In this document: positions 50,668 to 64,000 of the stretch, piece after piece | Numbering within the stretch: the first letter of the stretch is position 1 | Layout: every line of letters begins with the position of its first letter | NCBI RefSeq assembly: GCF_964213995.1 | Contig: NW_027590154.1 | Location: 620,001-684,000 of the forward strand | Direction: 5' to 3' | DNA length: 64,000 bases | Source of the DNA: Mustelus asterias | Taxonomy: Eukaryota | Program-made: the position numbers and the translations under genes | Notes under the pieces: generated by a model | The model's input: only the letters and a program-made list of their open reading frames with translations | What the model was told of the DNA's origin: nothing | The model's database searches: none

Positions 50668-51510
50668 TCACTTGTGAATTCGCTGGTGTCTTAGCAGGTG
50701 AGATGACCGTTTAAATCTATTCCCACACTCAGAGCAGCTGAACGGCCTCTCCCCAGTGTGAACTCGCTGGTGTGTGAGCAGATTGGAGATCTGAGTGAAT
50801 CCCTTCCCACAGTCAGAGCAAGTGAATGGCCTCTCCCCAGTATGAACTCGCTGGTGTGCCAACAGGGTGGATGAATGACTGAAACCCTTCCCGCACACAG
50901 AGCAGGTGAAGGGTGTCTCCCCAGTGTGAACTCGCTGGTGTATTAGCAGTTGGGATGATGTTCTAAATCTCTTCACGCAGTGAGAGCAGCTGAACGGTCT
51001 GTCCTCAGTGTGAATGCGCTGGTGGCCCATCAGAGTCTGAGAGCTTTTGAAGCTACGCCCACAGTCTGAGCATTTAAACAGTCTCTCATTCATGTGAGTG
51101 ACACGGTGTGTCTGCAGGGTGGATGAATGACTGAATCCCTTCCCACACACACAGCAGGTGAACGGCCTCTCCCCAGAGTGAACTCGCCGGTGCCTCCACA
51201 GGGTGGAACGATCGCTGAATCCTTTCCCACAGTCTGAGCAGGCGAAAGGCCTCTCCCCGGTGTGAACTCGCTGGTGGGTCAGCAGGCTGGATAACTGAGT
51301 GAATCCTTTCCCACACACGGAGCAGGTGAACGGCCTCTCCCCAGAATGAACTCGCTGGTGTCTCAGCAGGGTGGTTGATATACTGAATCCCTTCCCACAC
51401 ACAGAGCAGGTGAACGGCCTCTCCCCAGTGTGAACTCGTCGATGTGTGTCCAGTGCAGATGGGCACTGGAATCCCTTCCCACAGTCCCCACATTTCCATG
51501 GTCTCTCCAT
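50668..51510 (-). CDS. Tandem C2H2 zinc-finger protein, 280 aa, 10 fingers
   Basis: accATGg start MERPWKC at 51510 (the tracked start at 51552 is TTG); ends HK*. Confidence 0.88.
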
Positions 51511-55250: not shown

Positions 55251-55611
55251 TGTATGGGACCTGAACCCACTGCAGTCCATGTTGTGCAGGTACATCCACC
55301 CCGCTGGTAGGGAGAGAATTCCATGATTTTGACCCAGCGACTGTGACGGAATGGTGATATATTTCCAGATGTGGAGATAAGAACATAAGAAATAGGAGCA
55401 GGAGTTGGCCATCTCGCCCTTCAAGCCTGCTCCGCCATTCAATAAGATCATGGCTGATTTGATAGTGGGTTCAATTCCACTTACACACCCGCTCCCCATA
55501 ACCCTTAATTCCCTTAATGGTTAAAAATCTATCCATAGAACATAGAACAGTACAGCACAGAACAGGCCCTTCGGCCCACGATGTTGTGCCGACCTTCATC
55601 TGAAACCAAGA

Positions 55612-58482
55612 TCAAGCTATCCCACTCCCTACCATCCTGGTGTGCTCCATGTGCCTATCCAATAACCGCTTAAATGTTCCTAAAGTGTCTGACTCCACTA
55701 TCACTGCAGGCAGTCCATTCCACACCCCAACCACTCTCTGCGTGAAGAACCTACCTCTGATATCCTTCCTATATCTCCCACCATGAACCCTATAGTTATG
55801 CCCCCTCGTAATAGCTCCATCCACCCGAGGAAATAGTCTTTGAACGTTCACTCGATCTATCCCCTTCATCATTTTATAAACCTCTATTAAGTCTCCCCTC
55901 AATCTCCTCCGCTCCAGAGAGAACAGCCCCAGCTCCCTCAACCTTTCCTCATAAGACCGACACTCCAAACCAGGCAGCATCCTGGTAAATCTCCTCTGCA
56001 CTCTTTCCAGCGCTTCCACATCCTTCTTATAGTGAGGTGACCAGAACTGCACGCAATATTCCAAATGCGGTCTCACCAAGGTCCTGTACAGTTGCAGCAT
56101 AACCCCACGGCTCTTAAACTCCAACCCCCTGTTAATAAAAGCTAACACACTATATGCCTTCTTCACAGCTCTATCCACTTGAGTGGCAACCTTTAGAGAT
56201 CTGTGGATATGGACCCCAAGATCTCTCTGTTCCTCCACAGTCTTCAGAACCCTACCTTTGACCCTGTAATCCACATTTAAATTAGTCCTACCAAAATGAA
56301 TCACCTCACATTTATCAGGGTTAAACTCCATTTGCCATTTTTCAGCCCAGCTTTGCATCCTATCTATGTCTCTTTGCAGCCTACAACACCCCTCCACCTC
56401 ATCCACTACTCCACCAATCTTGGTGTCATCAGCAAATTTACTGATCCACCCTTCAGCCCCCTCCTCTAAGTCATTAATAAAAATCACAAAGAGCAGAGGA
56501 CCAAGCACCGATCCCTGCGGCACTCCGCTAGCAACCTGCCTCCAGTCCGAAAATTTTCCATCCACCACCACCCTCTGTCTTCGATCAGACAGCCAGTTAC
56601 CTATCCAATCGGCCAACTTTCCCTCTATCCCACACCTCCTTACTTTCATCATAAGCCGACCATGGGGGACCTTATCAAACGCCTTACTAAAATCCATGTA
56701 TATGACATCAACCGCCCTACCTTCATCAACACACCTAGTTACCTCCTCAAAAAATTCTATCAAATTTGTGAGGCACGATTTGCCCTTCACAAATCCGTGC
56801 TGACTATCCCGGATTAATCCGCATCTTTCTAAATGGTCGTAAATCCCATCCCTAAGGACCTTTTCCATCAATTTACCAACCACCGAAGTCAGACTAACCG
56901 GTCTATAATTACCAGGGTCATTTCTATTCCCTTTCTTAAACAGAGGAACAACATTTGCCACTCTCCAGTCCTCTGGCACCATCCCCGTGGACAGCGAGGA
57001 CCCAAAGATCAAAGCCAAAGGCTCTGCAATCTCATCCCTCGCCTCCCAAAGAATCCTAGGATACATTTCATCAGGCCCAGGGGACTTATCGACCTTCAGT
57101 TTATTCAAAACTGCCAATACATCCTCCCTCCGAACATCTATTTCCTCCAGCCTATTAGCCTGTAACACCTTCTCTTCCTGAAAAACATGGCCCCTCTCCT
57201 TGGTGAACACTGAAGAAAAGTATTCATTCATCACCTCGCCTATCTCTACTGATTCCATACACAAGTTCCCACCACTGTCCTTGACCGGCCCTAACCTCAC
57301 CCTGGTCATTCTTTTATTCCTCACATAAGAGTAAAAAGCCTTGGGGTTTTCCTTGATCCGACCCGCCAAGGACTTCTCATGTCCCCTCCTAGCTCTCCTC
57401 AGCCCCTTTTTCAGCTCGTTCCTTGCTAACTTGTAACCCTCAGTCGAGCCATCTGAACCTTGTTTCCTCATCCCTCCATAAGCTTCCCTCTTCCTTTTCA
57501 CAAGACATTCCACCTCTTTTGTGAACCACGGTTCCCTCACTCGGCCATTTCCTCCCTGCCTGACAGGGACATACCTATCAAGGACACCCAGTATTTGTTC
57601 CTTGAAAAAGTTCCACTTTTCATCAGTGCCTTTCCCTGACAGTTTCTGTTCCCATCTTATGCCCCCTAATTCTTGCCTAATCGCATCATAATTACCTCTC
57701 CCCCAATTGTAAGCCTTGCCCTGCCGTCCGGCCCTATCCCTCTCCATTGCAATAACAAAAGACACCGAATTGTGGTCACTATCTCCAAAGTTCTCTCCCA
57801 CAACCAAATCTAACACTTGGCCCGGTTCATTTCCCAGTACCAAATCCAATGTGGCCTCACCCCTTGTCGGCCTATCCACATATTGTGTCAGGAAACCCTC
57901 CTGCACACACTGCACAAAAAGTGCCCCATCCAAACTATTTGACCTACAAAGGTTCCAATCAATATTTGGAAAGTTAAAGTCCCCCATGACAACTACCCTG
58001 TGACCCCCACACGTATCCATAATCTGCTTAGCAATTTCTTCCTCCACATCTCTATTACTATTTGGGGGCCTATAGTAAACTCCTAGCAACGTGACCGCTC
58101 CTTTCCTGTTTCTAACTGCAGCCCATATTACCTCAGTGTGCATATCCCCCTCAAAGTGCTTTTCCGCAGCCGTTAAACTATCCTTGATTAACAATGCTAC
58201 TCCTCCACCTCTTTTACCAGCTTCCCTACACTTAGTGAAACATCTGTACCCCGGAACGTCCAACAACCATTCCTGTCCTTGTTCTACCCACGTCTCCGTA
58301 ATGGCCACAACATCATAGTCCCAAGTAGCAATCCACGCCCCAAGTTCATCCACCTTGTTCCGGATGCTCCTTGCATTGAAGTAGACACACTTCAACCCAT
58401 CTTCCTGTCTACCGGTACCCACCCTTGACCTTGATACCTTCCCCAATACCTCACCACCCTCAACACTGACTTCTTTTCCCAC
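55612..58482 (-). CDS. CR1 ORF2: APE endonuclease and reverse transcriptase (956 aa open, no N-terminal ATG)
   Basis: FNARS, ITETW, GDFN, SDH; PQGSVLGP, FADD; the tracked start codon is GTG. Confidence 0.92.
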   Translation of the reverse strand: MGKEVSVEGGEVLGKVSRSRVGTGRQEDGLKCVYFNARSIRNKVDELGAWIATWDYDVVAITETWVEQGQEWLLDVPGYRCFTKCREAGKRGGGVALLIKDSLTAAEKHFEGDMHTEVIWAAVRNRKGAVTLLGVYYRPPNSNRDVEEEIAKQIMDTCGGHRVVVMGDFNFPNIDWNLCRSNSLDGALFVQCVQEGFLTQYVDRPTRGEATLDLVLGNEPGQVLDLVVGENFGDSDHNSVSFVIAMERDRAGRQGKAYNWGRGNYDAIRQELGGIRWEQKLSGKGTDEKWNFFKEQILGVLDRYVPVRQGGNGRVREPWFTKEVECLVKRKREAYGGMRKQGSDGSTEGYKLARNELKKGLRRARRGHEKSLAGRIKENPKAFYSYVRNKRMTRVRLGPVKDSGGNLCMESVEIGEVMNEYFSSVFTKERGHVFQEEKVLQANRLEEIDVRREDVLAVLNKLKVDKSPGPDEMYPRILWEARDEIAEPLALIFGSSLSTGMVPEDWRVANVVPLFKKGNRNDPGNYRPVSLTSVVGKLMEKVLRDGIYDHLERCGLIRDSQHGFVKGKSCLTNLIEFFEEVTRCVDEGRAVDVIYMDFSKAFDKVPHGRLMMKVRRCGIEGKLADWIGNWLSDRRQRVVVDGKFSDWRQVASGVPQGSVLGPLLFVIFINDLEEGAEGWISKFADDTKIGGVVDEVEGCCRLQRDIDRMQSWAEKWQMEFNPDKCEVIHFGRTNLNVDYRVKGRVLKTVEEQRDLGVHIHRSLKVATQVDRAVKKAYSVLAFINRGLEFKSRGVMLQLYRTLVRPHLEYCVQFWSPHYKKDVEALERVQRRFTRMLPGLECRSYEERLRELGLFSLERRRLRGDLIEVYKMMKGIDRVNVQRLFPRVDGAITRGHNYRVHGGRYRKDIRGRFFTQRVVGVWNGLPAVIVESDTLGTFKRLLDRHMEHTRMVGSGIA

Positions 58483-58494
58483 TCCCCTGACAAA

Positions 58495-59421
58495 TTAGTT
58501 TAAATCCCCCTGAAGAGCCGTAGCAAATTTCCCTCCCAGGATATTGGTGCCCCTCTGGTTCAGGTGCACCCCGTCCTGTTTGTAGAGGTCCCACCTTCCC
58601 CAGAACGTGTTCCAATTATCCACGTATCTGAAACCCTCCCTCCTGCACCATCCCTGCAACCACATGTTTAAGTGCACTCTCTCCCTGTTCCTCAACTCGC
58701 TATCACGTGGCACCGGTAGCGTACCAGAGATGACCACATGTTTTGTCTTTGCTCTCAGCTTCCAGCCGAGCTCCCGAAATTCCTGTTTTAAATCCCCGTC
58801 CCTTCTCTTACCTATGTCGTTGGTACCAATGTGTACCACGACTTGTGACTGTTTCCCCTCCCCCTTAAGAATCCGGAAAACACGGTCCGAGACGTCACGG
58901 ACCCTGGCATCCGGTAGGCAACAAACCATCCTCGAGTCTCTTTTGCTGCCACAGAACCTCCTATCTATCCCTCTAACTAACGAGTCCCCAATAACTATTG
59001 CCCTCCCGCTCTCCTCCTTACCCTCCTGAGCCACAGGGACGGACTCAGTGCCGGAGATCCTCTCACTGCGGCTCACCACTGGTATGTCGTCCCCCTCAAC
59101 CGTATCCAAAGCGGAATACTTATTGCTAAGGGGAACGACCACAGGGGATCCCTGCACCGACTGCTTCTTCCCAGCCCCTCTCACCGTCACCCATCTATTT
59201 TCATTCCGCGGAGTAACTGTATCCCTGAAGCTTCTGTCTATGGCCATCTCTGCATCCCTAATGATCCTAAGTTCCTCCAACTCCAGCTCCAGTTCCCTTA
59301 CACGGTTTTGGAGGAGCTGCAGATGGATGCACTTCTCACAGGTATAATCAGCAGGGACACTGACGTCGTCCCTCACCTCGAACATAGTGCAAGAGGAACA
59401 TTGCACTGCCTGCACACCCAT
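58495..59421 (-). CDS. CR1 ORF1: CxxC-CxxC zinc finger, coiled coil and SGNH/GDSL esterase
   Basis: CSSC...CEKC; heptad Leu pattern; IGDSLV, HIGTND, DGVHL. Confidence 0.9.
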   Translation of the reverse strand: MGVQAVQCSSCTMFEVRDDVSVPADYTCEKCIHLQLLQNRVRELELELEELRIIRDAEMAIDRSFRDTVTPRNENRWVTVRGAGKKQSVQGSPVVVPLSNKYSALDTVEGDDIPVVSRSERISGTESVPVAQEGKEESGRAIVIGDSLVRGIDRRFCGSKRDSRMVCCLPDARVRDVSDRVFRILKGEGKQSQVVVHIGTNDIGKRRDGDLKQEFRELGWKLRAKTKHVVISGTLPVPRDSELRNRERVHLNMWLQGWCRREGFRYVDNWNTFWGRWDLYKQDGVHLNQRGTNILGGKFATALQGDLN

Positions 59422-61789
59422 CCCCTCTAGATACCTTGCCAGTACCAGGTAGAAACAGCAAAAAATGAATTAACTCACCCCTGCTCGCCCTTTCTGCCCA
59501 AGCCCTGTGAGCCAAAGCCCTACAGCATTCACTCTGCCTCCTGCTCACTCCACTGCCCACTAACGACGCTGCCCGCTCAAAAGTGCGGCCTACTTTTAAA
59601 CCCTCCAAAAACCTTCCCAGACTCCTGCTGGGCCCACTTCCTGTTTTAAAAAAAACCTCCGATTTTTTACACAAATTTAACTTAAAATAAATAAATAAAT
59701 GTAGTGAACAAACCAACTGCCTTCTCCTCAGCCTGGTCCTGTGGAACAATGAGTGACAATCCATCTGTGACTTAAACACATTTAACGAGGTAGCCTCTAC
59801 TGCTTCATTGGGCAGAGAATTCCAAAGATTCACCACCCTCTGGGAGAGGAAGTTCCTCCTCAACTCTGTTCTAAATTGACTCCCCCGTATTTTGAGGCTA
59901 TGCCCCCTAGTTCTTGTTTCCATTGTAAGTGGAAATAACCTCGCTGCTTCTCCCCTGTCTAGCCCCTTCATTATCTTATATGTCTCTATAAGATCTCCCC
60001 TCAACCTTCTAAACTCCAATGAGTACAGGCCCAGTCTACTCAATCTCTCCTCATAAGCTAACCCCCTCATCTCCGGAATCAACCTGGTGAACCTTCTCTG
60101 TACCCCCTCCAAAGCTAATATATCCTTTCTTAAATAAGGGGACCAAAATTGTACACAGTACTCTGGGTGTGGCCTCACCAGTACCCTGTACAGTTGCAGC
60201 ATGACCTCCCTGCTTTTATACTTCATCCCCTTCACGATAAAGGCCAACATTTCATTTGCCTTCTTGATCACCTGCTGCACCTGTAAACTGAGTTTTTGTG
60301 ATTCATGCACAAGGACCCCCAGGTCCCTCTGCACAGTACCATGTTGTAATTTTTCACCGTTTAAATAATAGTCCATTTTACAATTATTCCTTCCAAAATG
60401 GATAACCTCACACTTACCAACGTTATACTCCATCTGCCAGATCCTTGCCCACTCACTTAGCCTATCCAAACCTCTCTGCAGACTCTGTGTCCTCCACGCA
60501 ATTTGCTTTCCCACTCATCTTTGTGTCATCCGCAAACTTTGTTACCCGACACTGGGTCCCCTCCGCCGGATCGTCTATGTATATGGTAAATAGTTGAGGC
60601 CCCAGCACCGATCCCTGCAGCACACCACTAGTCACTGATTGCCAACCGGAAAAGCACCCATTTATTCCGACTCTCTGCTTTCTGTTGGATAGCCAATCCT
60701 CAATCCACGCTAACACTTTACCCCCAACTCCGTGTACCTTTATCTTATGCAGCAACCTTTTGTGAGGCACCTTATCGAATGCCTTCTGGAAATCTAAATA
60801 CACCACATCCACCGGTTCCCCTCTGTCAACTGTACTCATTATATCCTCAAAAAATTCCAGTAAATGTCGGATAATTTTTTCAAACACACGCTCCAGCTTG
60901 AATGATGTCTGTATCTAAACCCTTTATAACTTATGACAATTCATTGAGGTACAGCGGGGTCTAATGTTTTGTGTGTTTGGCAGAGAGTTTAGTCTGAGTT
61001 CGAAGCTCAAACAGGCTCTTCACTGCAGACAGCTCACCATGGCAACACTGATAAGACATTTCATTGCACAGAATCGACTCAGAAACCCTTGCCTGAGGCC
61101 TGGCTGTACTCAGTAGCCATTGATGATTTAACATGTTTTTGTGACTGTCTTGAATCAGTGACTTTAATGCTGGTGTTACTATTTTAAAATAAACTCATTC
61201 AAAATAATTTAATGCAGACTTTTATAAAGTATCAGATGAAGGAGTTCACAGGAGCCTGTTAATCGCTGGGACAACAATACAACAGGCATTGAGTGAGGGA
61301 CAGACGCGACCTGGAAACTGGAGGAGTGAATATTGGAAATACTGACCCTTCAGCACCCAGTGAATTCACACATGGCTCTGAGCTCCTGAACAGGGAACAG
61401 AAGCTCCTTTACAACTGTGTTTAGAGTCAGGAAGAACAGCGGTGAATGCTGGAAACGTGCTGTCAAATCAGAGATTGGTGTAAAACTGGGATCTGTTCCT
61501 GAGTGAGAGCGAAACAGTGGGTTTAAAATTCCAGTCTGAAAAATGACTGGTATTTATTGTGTGATGATTTAATGTGTTTGCGATAGTCTTGAATCAGTGA
61601 CTTTAAAGCTGGTGTTACTAATTTAGAATAAAGCCATTTAAAATAAATCTGTGAAAAATCAGTTGGAGGAGTTAAGAGGAGCCTGTTAACCCTGGGACAA
61701 TTATACAACAGACATTGGATCTTCAGATAGAGAAGGAGCTGCAGTATGTTTCCAGGAATTCCCTGTTTAATTGAGAATAAGCAGCTTCT

Positions 61790-62400
61790 GGTCCCGGGTA
61801 TAAACTGGCGGCAGCTTCTCGGCTGTTTCCGGTGACAGACCCGGCACAGCCAATGAGGGAGCTCTTGCTCAGAGCCGCCTCTGACACTCTCTCTCTGGTT
61901 GGAGGACCAGCTGTCCTTTCTCATTCTTCTTCAGAAGAGTCACATTGGACATGAATCATTAGCTCTGTTTCTCTCTCAACAGATGCTGCCAGACCGAGAG
62001 CTTTTCCAGCGTTTTCTGTTTTTATTTCACCATCTCCACCATTTCTTTCCTCCACTCCCAGTTTTCTCCCTCCCTCTCCTCTGTGTTCAGATCTCCAGCT
62101 CCTGCCTGCAGCCTAACAGTAAAATCAATGATTATCTCTCCTGGTCACTGGGACTCTGAAGCCCCGCCCCCTCGCTGTTGTGTCAAGGTAACCACACATG
62201 TGTTCTGCTCCCTGTTGAAACAAAATGGCAGCCATTAATCTGACCCTGGTCTGGAGCAGAATTCCTGGAGCTGCAAATGCAGGACCTGCAGGGTTTTATT
62301 CCAGATTTGCTACCAATCCCGGGTGTTAATGACCCCCTCCATCCACCTGCCAGCTCCACCGCTCCCTCATATCTCGCTGCCTCTGCCACCACTTACCGGC
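61790..62400. promoter_or_regulatory. Partly decayed paralog of the ZNF promoter/first-intron module, with no coding exon nearby
   Basis: 62040-62130 matches 17385-17475; aaaatggcagcc (YY1-like), a GC box, ggttggaggaccag. Confidence 0.5.
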
Positions 62401-62844
62401 AGCAAATGGGAGAAAAATCTCTTCTTCACCATCACTCGCCTTGGGCATGCTCCAAACAATCCAACGCTGTTATTGTGCATTCGTCTCCCATGATGTAGAG
62501 AGGGGACTTTCCCCATCACAGAGAATGCTGGGTATACTCACCACCATTTAAGTCCCAATTAGTTTTAATTATTTATTTGGTGTGACGGCACGGAGACTGG
62601 GGTTAGAGTGACAATCAATAAAATTAGGAACTAAATACAGAAACCCAAGTTTACAGTCCCTCTCCAATCTGCCAGACAGTAGGAGATGGGAATTAGTGAA
62701 GAACGAGAGTGTCCACATAGCAGTGTGTTATAATCCAGGTCTGAAACTCCAAGGTGTTTTATAAAGTCATCCCAGATCATAAGCTTTGCATTTTGACTTT
62801 GGTACGGGTAAGCATGAGATGTTTCACTCCAGGTATGATTCAAG

Positions 62845-64000
62845 TCGCGGGAGAGTGAGAACAGGAATCGGTGGAGAATGAATGCGTGGCTGAGGGACTG
62901 GAGCAAGGGACAAGGATTTGGGTACTTGGATCATTGGGACCTCTTTAGGGGCAGGTGTGACCTGTTTAAAAAAGACGGGTGGCACTTGAATCCCAGGGGG
63001 ACCAATATCCTGGCGGGAAGGTTGGCTAAGGCTACTGGAGAGACTTTAAACTAGAAAGGTTGGGGGGAGGGAATCGAAATGAGGGGACTGAGAGCGAGGA
63101 GGTTAGCTCGCAAATAGATAAGGAATGTAGACAGGGTAAGAGGGAGGTTAGACGAGTGATGGAGAAGGGAAGTGCTCAGGCTGAAGGTCTGAGATGTGTC
63201 TATTTTAATGCCAGGAGTGTAGTGAATAAAGTGGATGAGCTTAGAGCGTGGATTGCTGCTTCGAATTGTGATGTGGTGGCCATTACGGAGACTTGGATGT
63301 CTCAGGGACAGGACTGGGTGCTTCAGGTGCCGGGTTTTAGATGTTTCAGGAAGGACAGGGAGGGGGGCAAGAGAGGGGGGGGGGAGTGGCACTGTTGATC
63401 AGGGATAGTGTCACGGCTGTAGAGAAGGTGGACGCCGTGGAGGGATTGACTACGGAGTCTCTGTGGGTGGAGGTTAGGAACAGGAAGGGGTCGGTAACTT
63501 TGCTGGGTGTTTTCTATAGGCCACCCAATAGTAACAGAGATGTTGAGGAGCAGATGGGGAAACAGATCCTGGAGAGATGTAGGAATAACAGAGTTGTCGT
63601 GATGGGAGATTTTAATTTCCCAAACATAGATTGGAATATCCCTAGGGCTAGGGGTTTGGATGGAGAGGAGTTTGTTAGGTGTGTCCAGGAGAGTTTCCTG
63701 ACACAGTATGTGGATAAGCCTACTAGAGGAGAGGCTGTACTTGATCTGGTGCTGGCTAATGAACCTGGACAGGTGGAGGATCTCTCGGTGGGTGAGCATC
63801 TTGGGGATAGCGATCATAATTCTATCTCCTTCACGATAGCATTGGAAAGAGATAGGATCAGGCAGGCTAGGAAAGTGTTTCTCTGGAGTAAAGGGAAATG
63901 CAGTGTCATCAGGGAGGCAATTGGACGGGTAAATTGGAAGGAGGCATTCTTGGGGAAAAGTACCGAAGGAAAGTGGAGGATTTTCAAGGAATGTTTGTCT
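62845..64000 (+). mobile_element. CR1: end of ORF1 and start of ORF2, running off the window; frameshift in the G-run at about 63380
   Basis: WDLF...DGWHLNPRGTNILAG...LN* followed by CVYFNARS, ITETW, GDFNFP. Confidence 0.92.

Follow-up and report, generated by a model that had tools for sequence, protein, structure and literature searches.

Results

A CR1 element with a slippery heptamer at its ORF1 stop codon

The window analyzed here is a stretch of 64,000 nucleotides of Mustelus asterias (contig NW_027590154.1, positions 620,001 to 684,000 of the forward strand), taken from a source genome of 3.68 Gb. Its right end holds a plus-strand copy of a CR1 retrotransposon (family A), which is 5'-truncated at about 62846, where the alignment to longer copies begins, leaving the last ~68 codons of ORF1. 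This ORF1 3' end (62846..63054) encodes the C-terminus of an SGNH/GDSL esterase (...DGWHLN...ATGETLN*); it matches the ORF1 of a second copy in the window at 54% (tblastn), and the closest named relatives of ORF1 are those of sharks and rays. In the ORF1 frame the junction reads ...GAG ACT TTA AAC TAG, which places the heptamer U_UUA_AAC (TTTAAAC, 63045..63051) in X XXY YYZ phase directly in front of the ORF1 stop codon TAG (63052..63054), an arrangement found in 34/34 family-A loci. U_UUA_AAC is the heptamer at which coronaviruses shift into the -1 frame. At the CR1 junction the -1 frame reads FKLERLGGGNRNEG...VMEKG...LRCVYFNARS (in short, FKLERLGGG...VMEKG...CVYFNARS) and stays open for 117 codons. 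It comprises a linker of 52 codons from the slip site to the APE endonuclease (63045..63200), with an in-frame ATG (VMEKG) at 63159..63161 which is specific to family A and absent in the sister family A2, and the endonuclease domain of ORF2 (Pfam PF03372; 63195..64000), which runs past the window to about 66050 in the same numbering. ORF2 loses its frame at a G10 run (63375-63384) and a second time past the end of the window. A G tract begins at 63058 and has its core, GGGGGGAGGG, at 63062-63071; this motif of the form GGGG-N3-GGG starts 11 nt after the heptamer and is a candidate frameshift stimulator. The first-pass annotation of this DNA had described the heptamer followed by TAG, a -1 frame open into the endonuclease, a G-rich tract within about 10 nt and an ATG ahead of the endonuclease domain, and all of these were confirmed. 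Counting both strands, the window has 27 occurrences of TTTAAAC; the presence of the heptamer alone is thus at chance level and the case rests on the relatives of this copy; the position, phase and conservation of the heptamer are not at chance level.

The second copy lies on the minus strand and belongs to family B. It has a full ORF1 of the esterase type (58495..59421; Pfam PF13472, E 4.4e-12), which ends in the heptamer U_UUA_AAC (58498..58504), in the same phase as in the first copy, and the stop codon TAA (58497-58495). The G-rich motif GGGGAGTGGG follows at 58478..58487 with the same 10-nt spacer. ORF2 (55612..58494; APE endonuclease and reverse transcriptase, PF03372 and PF00078) has no Met ahead of the endonuclease and is here in frame 0, because 14 nt are missing about 25 nt after the heptamer (near 58472). 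The 14 nt and the -1 offset are retained in 27/30 fetched family-B loci, the three exceptions being the copy in the window and its two near-identical duplicates. The earlier description of a phased heptamer at the ORF1 stop of this diverged copy holds, but its ORF2 is not in the -1 frame. Both CR1 copies in the window are broken.

The domain content agrees with that of canonical CR1. ORF1 carries the SGNH/GDSL esterase domain, with homologues named from sharks, rays and reptiles, ORF2 carries the endonuclease and reverse transcriptase, and no protease domain was found in either ORF by Pfam. Instead of poly(A), the 3' end consists of short tandem repeats, with (TTCTATG)n-type tails following a hairpin motif in 16/21 loci, namely those where the end of ORF2 was located. 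By eye, the junction matches published CR1 consensuses. Most families share a common 3' hairpin motif (GGGCCGAAGGGCC) and the TTCTATG-repeat tail (window 55500-55611, minus strand; L272-L291), a combination which we take to resemble the tail of the shark HE1/HER1 elements.

Several further features of the region were observed. Both CR1 copies (55612-64000) are found again, equally spaced and with identical lesions, on contigs C122, C132 and C71 (L001-L003, L031-L033), which points to a segmental duplication or to haplotype duplicates of the region. The window contains more than a dozen further 5'-truncated CR1/L2-like ORF2 fragments (2700-61000, 30-91% identity), and some flanks resemble C2H2 zinc-finger exons by eye, e.g. 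near 50700. The G run within the endonuclease (KRGGGV, 63375-63384) varies in length among 34 family-A copies, a sample biased towards the window copy: G8 in 8, G9 in 9, G10 in 11, G11 in 4, G12 in 1 and an interrupted run in 1. This variation reflects either a hot spot of copying slippage or assembly error.

Conservation of the heptamer within the genome

In family A, the heptamer, TAG and a -1 frame open into the endonuclease were present in 30/30 fetched loci, which include the window copy and its two duplicates. For the clustering described below, loci were taken from the first matches listed for two ORF1 patterns and were partly picked for diversity. Genome-wide, an ORF1 pattern lying clear of the junction gave 15,687 matches. 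A junction pattern with the heptamer letters left unspecified, which captures families of the QG.G type, gave 8931 (8 for the control), 7965 of them with exactly TTTAAAC. Among the first 100 junction matches listed 14 deviate, twelve by scattered point changes and two as chance matches.

To compare lineages rather than copies, 23 lineages (8 multi-copy, 15 single copies) were chosen blind to the letters of the heptamer; a lineage was kept only if its ORF1 stop was located at the homologous codon, and one mixed cluster was excluded. The wobble base preceding the Leu codon was T in 23/23 lineages, across codons for seven amino acids (D, T, A, G, S, I and V). The Leu codon itself was TTA in 19/23 lineages, with none using another Leu codon, and the Asn codon was AAC in 21/23; in the same ORF1s, TTA accounts for 13% of Leu codons and AAC for 44% of Asn codons. 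At 11 wobble positions further upstream the median conservation was 0.57, with two positions reaching 0.91. As the lineages share ancestry, these counts do not represent independent events. The exact heptamer was found in 8/8 multi-copy lineages, none of which displayed a synonymous break, so that the predicted conservation of TTTAAAC, with TTA for Leu and T at the preceding wobble position, is borne out in these lineages. The stop codon next to it differs by lineage (TAA, TAG or TGA), and the -1 frame reads across it as CTA or CTG, both Leu. Clustering of 183 records, a few of which are the same place fetched twice, yielded nine single-copy clusters without the exact heptamer. In old single copies the exact heptamer or the frame is often missing, which we read as decay.

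Offset of ORF2, linker and start codons

Among scored copies, ORF2 is in the -1 frame in 34/34 of family A, 61/65 of family B, 11/12 of family D, 6/6 of family E and 3/3 of family A2. Family C has 7/10, its remaining copies differing by one G in a G run, and the older family H has 6/10. Thus, the -1 offset is kept by the majority of scored copies in the young families A, A2, B, C, D and E despite a variable linker, which spans 123-366 nt (41-122 codons) from the slip site to the endonuclease. In families A and H a -1-frame stop lies 5 and 1 codons, respectively, ahead of the heptamer, and entry into the frame must therefore occur at or after the slip site. In representative loci (20/21 scorable) the linker holds no -1-frame stop, with up to 12 and 18 stops in the other frames; these loci were chosen as intact, and the absence of -1-frame stops is thus partly by choice.

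A conserved ORF2 ATG, which would have counted against frameshifting, was not found. In 9/20 representative loci the linker has no Met, and in the other 11/20 the Met codons are scattered over codons 3 to 74. Most copies of the young families B, D, E and A2 lack any Met between heptamer and endonuclease. Family B has its first Met at codon 125, within the endonuclease, and none occurs in 37 open codons upstream. The caveat attached to the flagged copy by the first-pass annotation, its in-frame ATG, is therefore correct for this copy and does not apply generally: in A2, Ile or Thr replaces the Met of VMEKG. A linker ATG is present in families A, C and G, that of family A in good context, and the family-F junctions (L097, L102, L133) show TAATG, a stop-start overlap as in SART1, on top of the heptamer. 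Neither a conserved UAAUG nor a conserved AUG was found near the ORF1 stop, as an ATG directly behind it occurs in only 3/23 lineages. Judged by the four young families without a linker AUG, an ORF2 AUG is dispensable; given the linker Met codons, the UAAUG of family F and the ATG context in family A, AUG reinitiation may occur alongside frameshifting.

The region downstream of the slip site

The 80 nt behind the slip site are poor in C (4-16%). Folding with ViennaRNA revealed no significant or shared 3' hairpin in 20 loci of this genome (z +1.4 to -1.7). Likewise, no pseudoknot or stem-loop was found 5-9 nt after the heptamer; ViennaRNA has no pseudoknot model, but there are few C residues to pair. 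A local hairpin or pseudoknot is therefore not supported as the stimulator, and neither is a coronavirus-like structured element. Pairing of the region with the 3' end of the element scored no better than shuffled sequences (12 loci, 7 families; z +1.7 to -1.8), so that 3'-tail pairing is likewise unsupported, and no shared pairing partner was found elsewhere in the element. A significant downstream hairpin (z -3.0) was found only in the metagenome locus L195, which has no G tract.

The element that is conserved behind the slip site is GGGG-N3-GG(G). G occupies positions +11, +12, +13 and +14 in 21, 22, 21 and 18 of 23 lineages, and where the codon at the motif encodes Gly it is GGG in 16/20 cases compared to 33% in ORF2. 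The spacer to the first GGGG measures 10 nt in 8/11 own-genome representatives, with 6 or 8 in the others, and 7-12 nt in 5/6 metagenome loci, L195 having its hairpin instead. Ranked by G4Hunter against the other windows of the element, the motif comes in the top 0.1-2.2%. Folding as a two-tier G-quadruplex is predicted for 8/12 loci, not in families B, D and H. A pause caused by the adjacent stop codon and the G motif, rather than by a pseudoknot, is likely in our view, although weakly supported. We tentatively suggest that the G-rich motif about 10 nt downstream may act as a linear element bound by protein; that it would act as a two-tier G-quadruplex appears rather doubtful.

Relatives beyond this genome

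Leu-Asn is invariant at the end of 23 aligned ORF1 proteins. In a library of ORF1 homologues at 50% identity, counted where the protein ends 22-30 residues after the DGxH motif, the terminal pairs are LN (28), GN (6), KN (2), SN (2), EN (2) and others (14); homologues named among those ending in LN stem from a snake, turtles, a tegu and an eel. One record, P0008, is labelled as a Pseudomonas aeruginosa SGNH hydrolase; it is 71% identical to CR1 ORF1, ends in GLN and is probably animal DNA in a bacterial assembly. The gene models P0037, P0062 and P0221 either lead from ORF1 into the -1-frame linker or combine esterase and endonuclease domains, and are probably single mutated copies. Longer, naturally fused proteins were represented by two gene models only, one of them with esterase plus endonuclease (P0221), giving no evidence of a fused lineage.

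From 80 metagenome loci, the 11 most element-like were analyzed; the other 69 (22-33% identity) are probably microbial SGNH hydrolases. The metagenome relatives show 27-58% identity in the endonuclease start, and the tree of this region, which has two mostly empty rows and long branches, was used for identities only. In L198 and L201, U_UUA_AAC precedes the ORF1 stop, with a -1 frame open into the endonuclease for 829 and 158 codons. In L197 the heptamer directly ahead of the stop is G_UUA_AAC, the -1 frame being open for 833 codons into the endonuclease, and in L192 and L195 it is G_GGA_AAC (835 and 699 codons). L193 displays G_GGA_AAC plus TAG at a contig end, L196 a non-canonical G_AAU_UUU directly ahead of the ORF1 stop with 815 codons open into the endonuclease, and the broken copy L199 retains the heptamer. 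The sequence of L194 ends early. Two esterase genes, L206 and L209, have neither an ORF2 behind them nor the heptamer. The ORF1 of L195 carries a long C-terminal extension (~900-1400) rich in Pro, Ser, Gly and Ala, and G_GGA_AAC has moved along with the stop codon. That three bases switch as a set while phase and AAAC stay the same is predicted by tandem tRNA slippage and neither by protein constraint nor by reinitiation.

In the supplement of PMC13343379, TTTAAAC followed by a stop was also found where ORF1 ends in 17 CR1 consensuses, most of which have a G tract, and in one Crack consensus, with four matches elsewhere; the search covered 22 of 23 places in cells cut at 400 letters and carries no denominator. 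Species read from the label abbreviations are alligator, crocodile, bearded dragon, bullfrog, coelacanth, bowfin, chimaera, rays, catshark and dogfish, each by motif match. No bird row was seen among the matches listed from this supplement. Viral contigs gave one unrelated weak match by profile alignment and none by DNA pattern.

Discussion

A model for the CR1 junction

Our analysis suggests, with a probability of roughly 0.85, that the ORF1/ORF2 junction of esterase-type CR1 elements is a site of programmed -1 ribosomal frameshifting which yields an ORF1-ORF2 fusion. Most ribosomes would terminate at the ORF1 stop and release ORF1p. In a minority, the tRNA-Leu and tRNA-Asn positioned on UUA AAC would re-pair one base back on UUU AAA, and the slipped ribosome would read the stop as CUA or CUG (Leu) and continue through a linker of 41-122 codons into endonuclease and reverse transcriptase. 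The product would be a Gag-Pol-like fusion of ORF1p and ORF2p. Pausing may be provided by the adjacent stop codon together with the G-rich motif about 10 nt downstream, a step for which support is weak. The position and phase of the heptamer, its synonymous conservation, the -1 offset, the dispensable AUG, the concerted heptamer variants and the conserved G motif can be read from the aligned sequences, and at that level they show that this known LINE family carries a genuine, conserved signal of the recoding type. Slippage of the ribosome, the fusion product and the role of the G motif are what we infer from them. The earlier proposal of a fusion made in the manner of gag-pol is thus supported by the conservation, the -1 offset and the unconserved ATG. 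The non-canonical heptamer of L196 and the 4/10 off-frame copies of family H count against it. Also, a missing AUG alone is no proof of frameshifting, since mammalian L1 is reported to tolerate the loss of its ORF2 AUG (PMC1965478).

Alternatively, termination-reinitiation at the ORF1 stop or shortly behind it might yield ORF2 as a protein of its own, with the heptamer as a cis reinitiation signal or a by-product. Where no AUG is available the start would be a non-AUG codon, in line with L1, whose ORF2 is considered AUG-independent (PMC5009743, PMC1965478); elsewhere it would be a UAAUG, as used by SART1 (PMC3708506), or a linker AUG, and family F on the one hand and families A, C and G on the other possess such codons. 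Moreover, as the -1 codon across the stop is always CUA or CUG, a start there would fix the frame equally well. However, the position of the AUG is not conserved, CUA is two changes away from AUG, and reinitiation explains neither why Leu is encoded by TTA only and the wobble T is invariant upstream of the stop, nor why the three X bases change jointly from UUU to GGG with AAAC and phase kept. We therefore regard reinitiation as an unlikely account of the junction.

It might also be argued that the letters are kept for reasons of protein or DNA only, i.e. the C-terminal Leu-Asn of ORF1, an AT-rich motif or shared descent, and that no recoding takes place. The lineages are indeed related, and the dipeptide is invariant in the 23 aligned proteins. 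A constraint on protein can fix neither TTA among six Leu codons nor a wobble T across seven amino acids, and the terminal dipeptide turns into Gly-Asn precisely in those loci whose heptamer is G_GGA_AAC; in L195, heptamer and stop have moved together to a position behind the long extension of ORF1. A start for ORF2 would still be needed, and we consider such an explanation very improbable. Slippage of RNA polymerase, RNA editing or splicing at the T/A runs, joining ORF1 and ORF2 in one frame, would likewise set the -1 offset and make an AUG unnecessary. However, runs of T3 and A3 are far shorter than the nine A or T in known cases of slippage (PMC5009743), and the pattern tracks codon phase, which is invisible to a polymerase. 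Contigs of four runs guessed to be RNA listed no indel in the heptamer and no GT..AG joint, with one 3-nt gap 47 nt further on, a weak argument as contigs drop rare variants. Joining at the RNA level is hence scarcely credible.

Comparison with known systems and implications

With programmed frameshifting as the preferred reading, CR1 elements would use a Gag-Pol-like strategy with a fixed ratio of ORF1p to ORF2p, the CR1 enzyme would carry its own ORF1 module, and current ORF2 annotations would start at the wrong place. In most vertebrate species, elements of the CR1 group are said to dominate among the retrotransposons (PMC13343379). More speculatively, CR1 elements of hosts ranging from sharks to reptiles, together with distant relatives in animals, may produce their reverse transcriptase as an ORF1-ORF2 fusion by a G-tract-stimulated -1 frameshift without an RNA fold, the stimulator being a linear G element bound by a host G-tract protein or by ORF1p, or a G-quadruplex; taken as a whole, we judge this to have somewhat less than an even chance. 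If the G tract indeed has this role, CR1 would provide the first frameshift in nature to be stimulated by a G tract, a G-rich counterpart of the PCBP mechanism of arteriviruses. Tests can target exact positions in the 7-nt site and in the G motif.

The elements most closely resemble vertebrate canonical CR1 (type IVB, CR1 subgroup 7; PMC4120745, PMC13343379), with which they share the esterase ORF1 with its N-terminal Cys motif, the APE endonuclease and reverse transcriptase of ORF2 and a short tandem-repeat tail without poly(A). The main text of both articles contains neither the word 'frameshift' nor the word 'overlap', and no report of CR1 frameshifting was found in the literature searched; the original accounts of CR1 in chicken and turtle, from the 1990s, lie outside this search and may mention an overlap. 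Mammalian L1 and silkworm SART1 likewise have a bicistronic LINE RNA with ORF2 downstream of ORF1 (PMC5009743, PMC3708506, PMC1965478). They are described as producing separate proteins by reinitiation, whereas CR1 has an overlap of its two ORFs at a slippery site and, in many families, lacks an AUG. Reviews describe LINE ORF2 translation as unclear (PMC3708506, PMC5009743); one of them puts it down to unconventional initiation (PMC5009743), with no mention of CR1 in the portion searched. The same review knew of no natural frameshift stimulated by a G-quadruplex in 2016 but expected one (PMC5009743), and the CR1 junction is a candidate.

In the nsp2 gene of PRRSV, -2/-1 frameshifting is protein-stimulated and depends on an unstructured C-rich motif, CCCANCUCC, 11 nt 3' of the shift site, which is bound by PCBP and nsp1beta and has a 10-nt spacer, functioning at 9-11 nt (PMC4937337). 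Similarly, the CR1 junction shows no conserved RNA structure and has a short low-complexity motif at a similar spacing; in contrast, the candidate motif of CR1 is G-rich, has no known binder and is preceded by spacers of 6-12 nt in some lineages. The likeness in spacing is thus a lead only. A precedent among non-LTR elements of the APE type is given by TRE5-A and TRE3-A of Dictyostelium, whose ORF2 is said to depend on a -1 frameshift (PMC5911963). They belong to another LINE clade, have another ORF1 and reside in a protist host, and the likeness rests on the statement of that review. In contrast to retroviral and LTR gag-pol and to coronavirus 1a/1b, CR1 displays no pseudoknot or hairpin 5-9 nt downstream, the stop follows the heptamer directly and no Pfam protease domain that could cut a fusion is present in ORF1 or ORF2. 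In the gag-pol and coronavirus systems, as in CR1, a phased X XXY YYZ heptamer is located near the end of the first ORF, with the ORF for the polymerase in the -1 frame.
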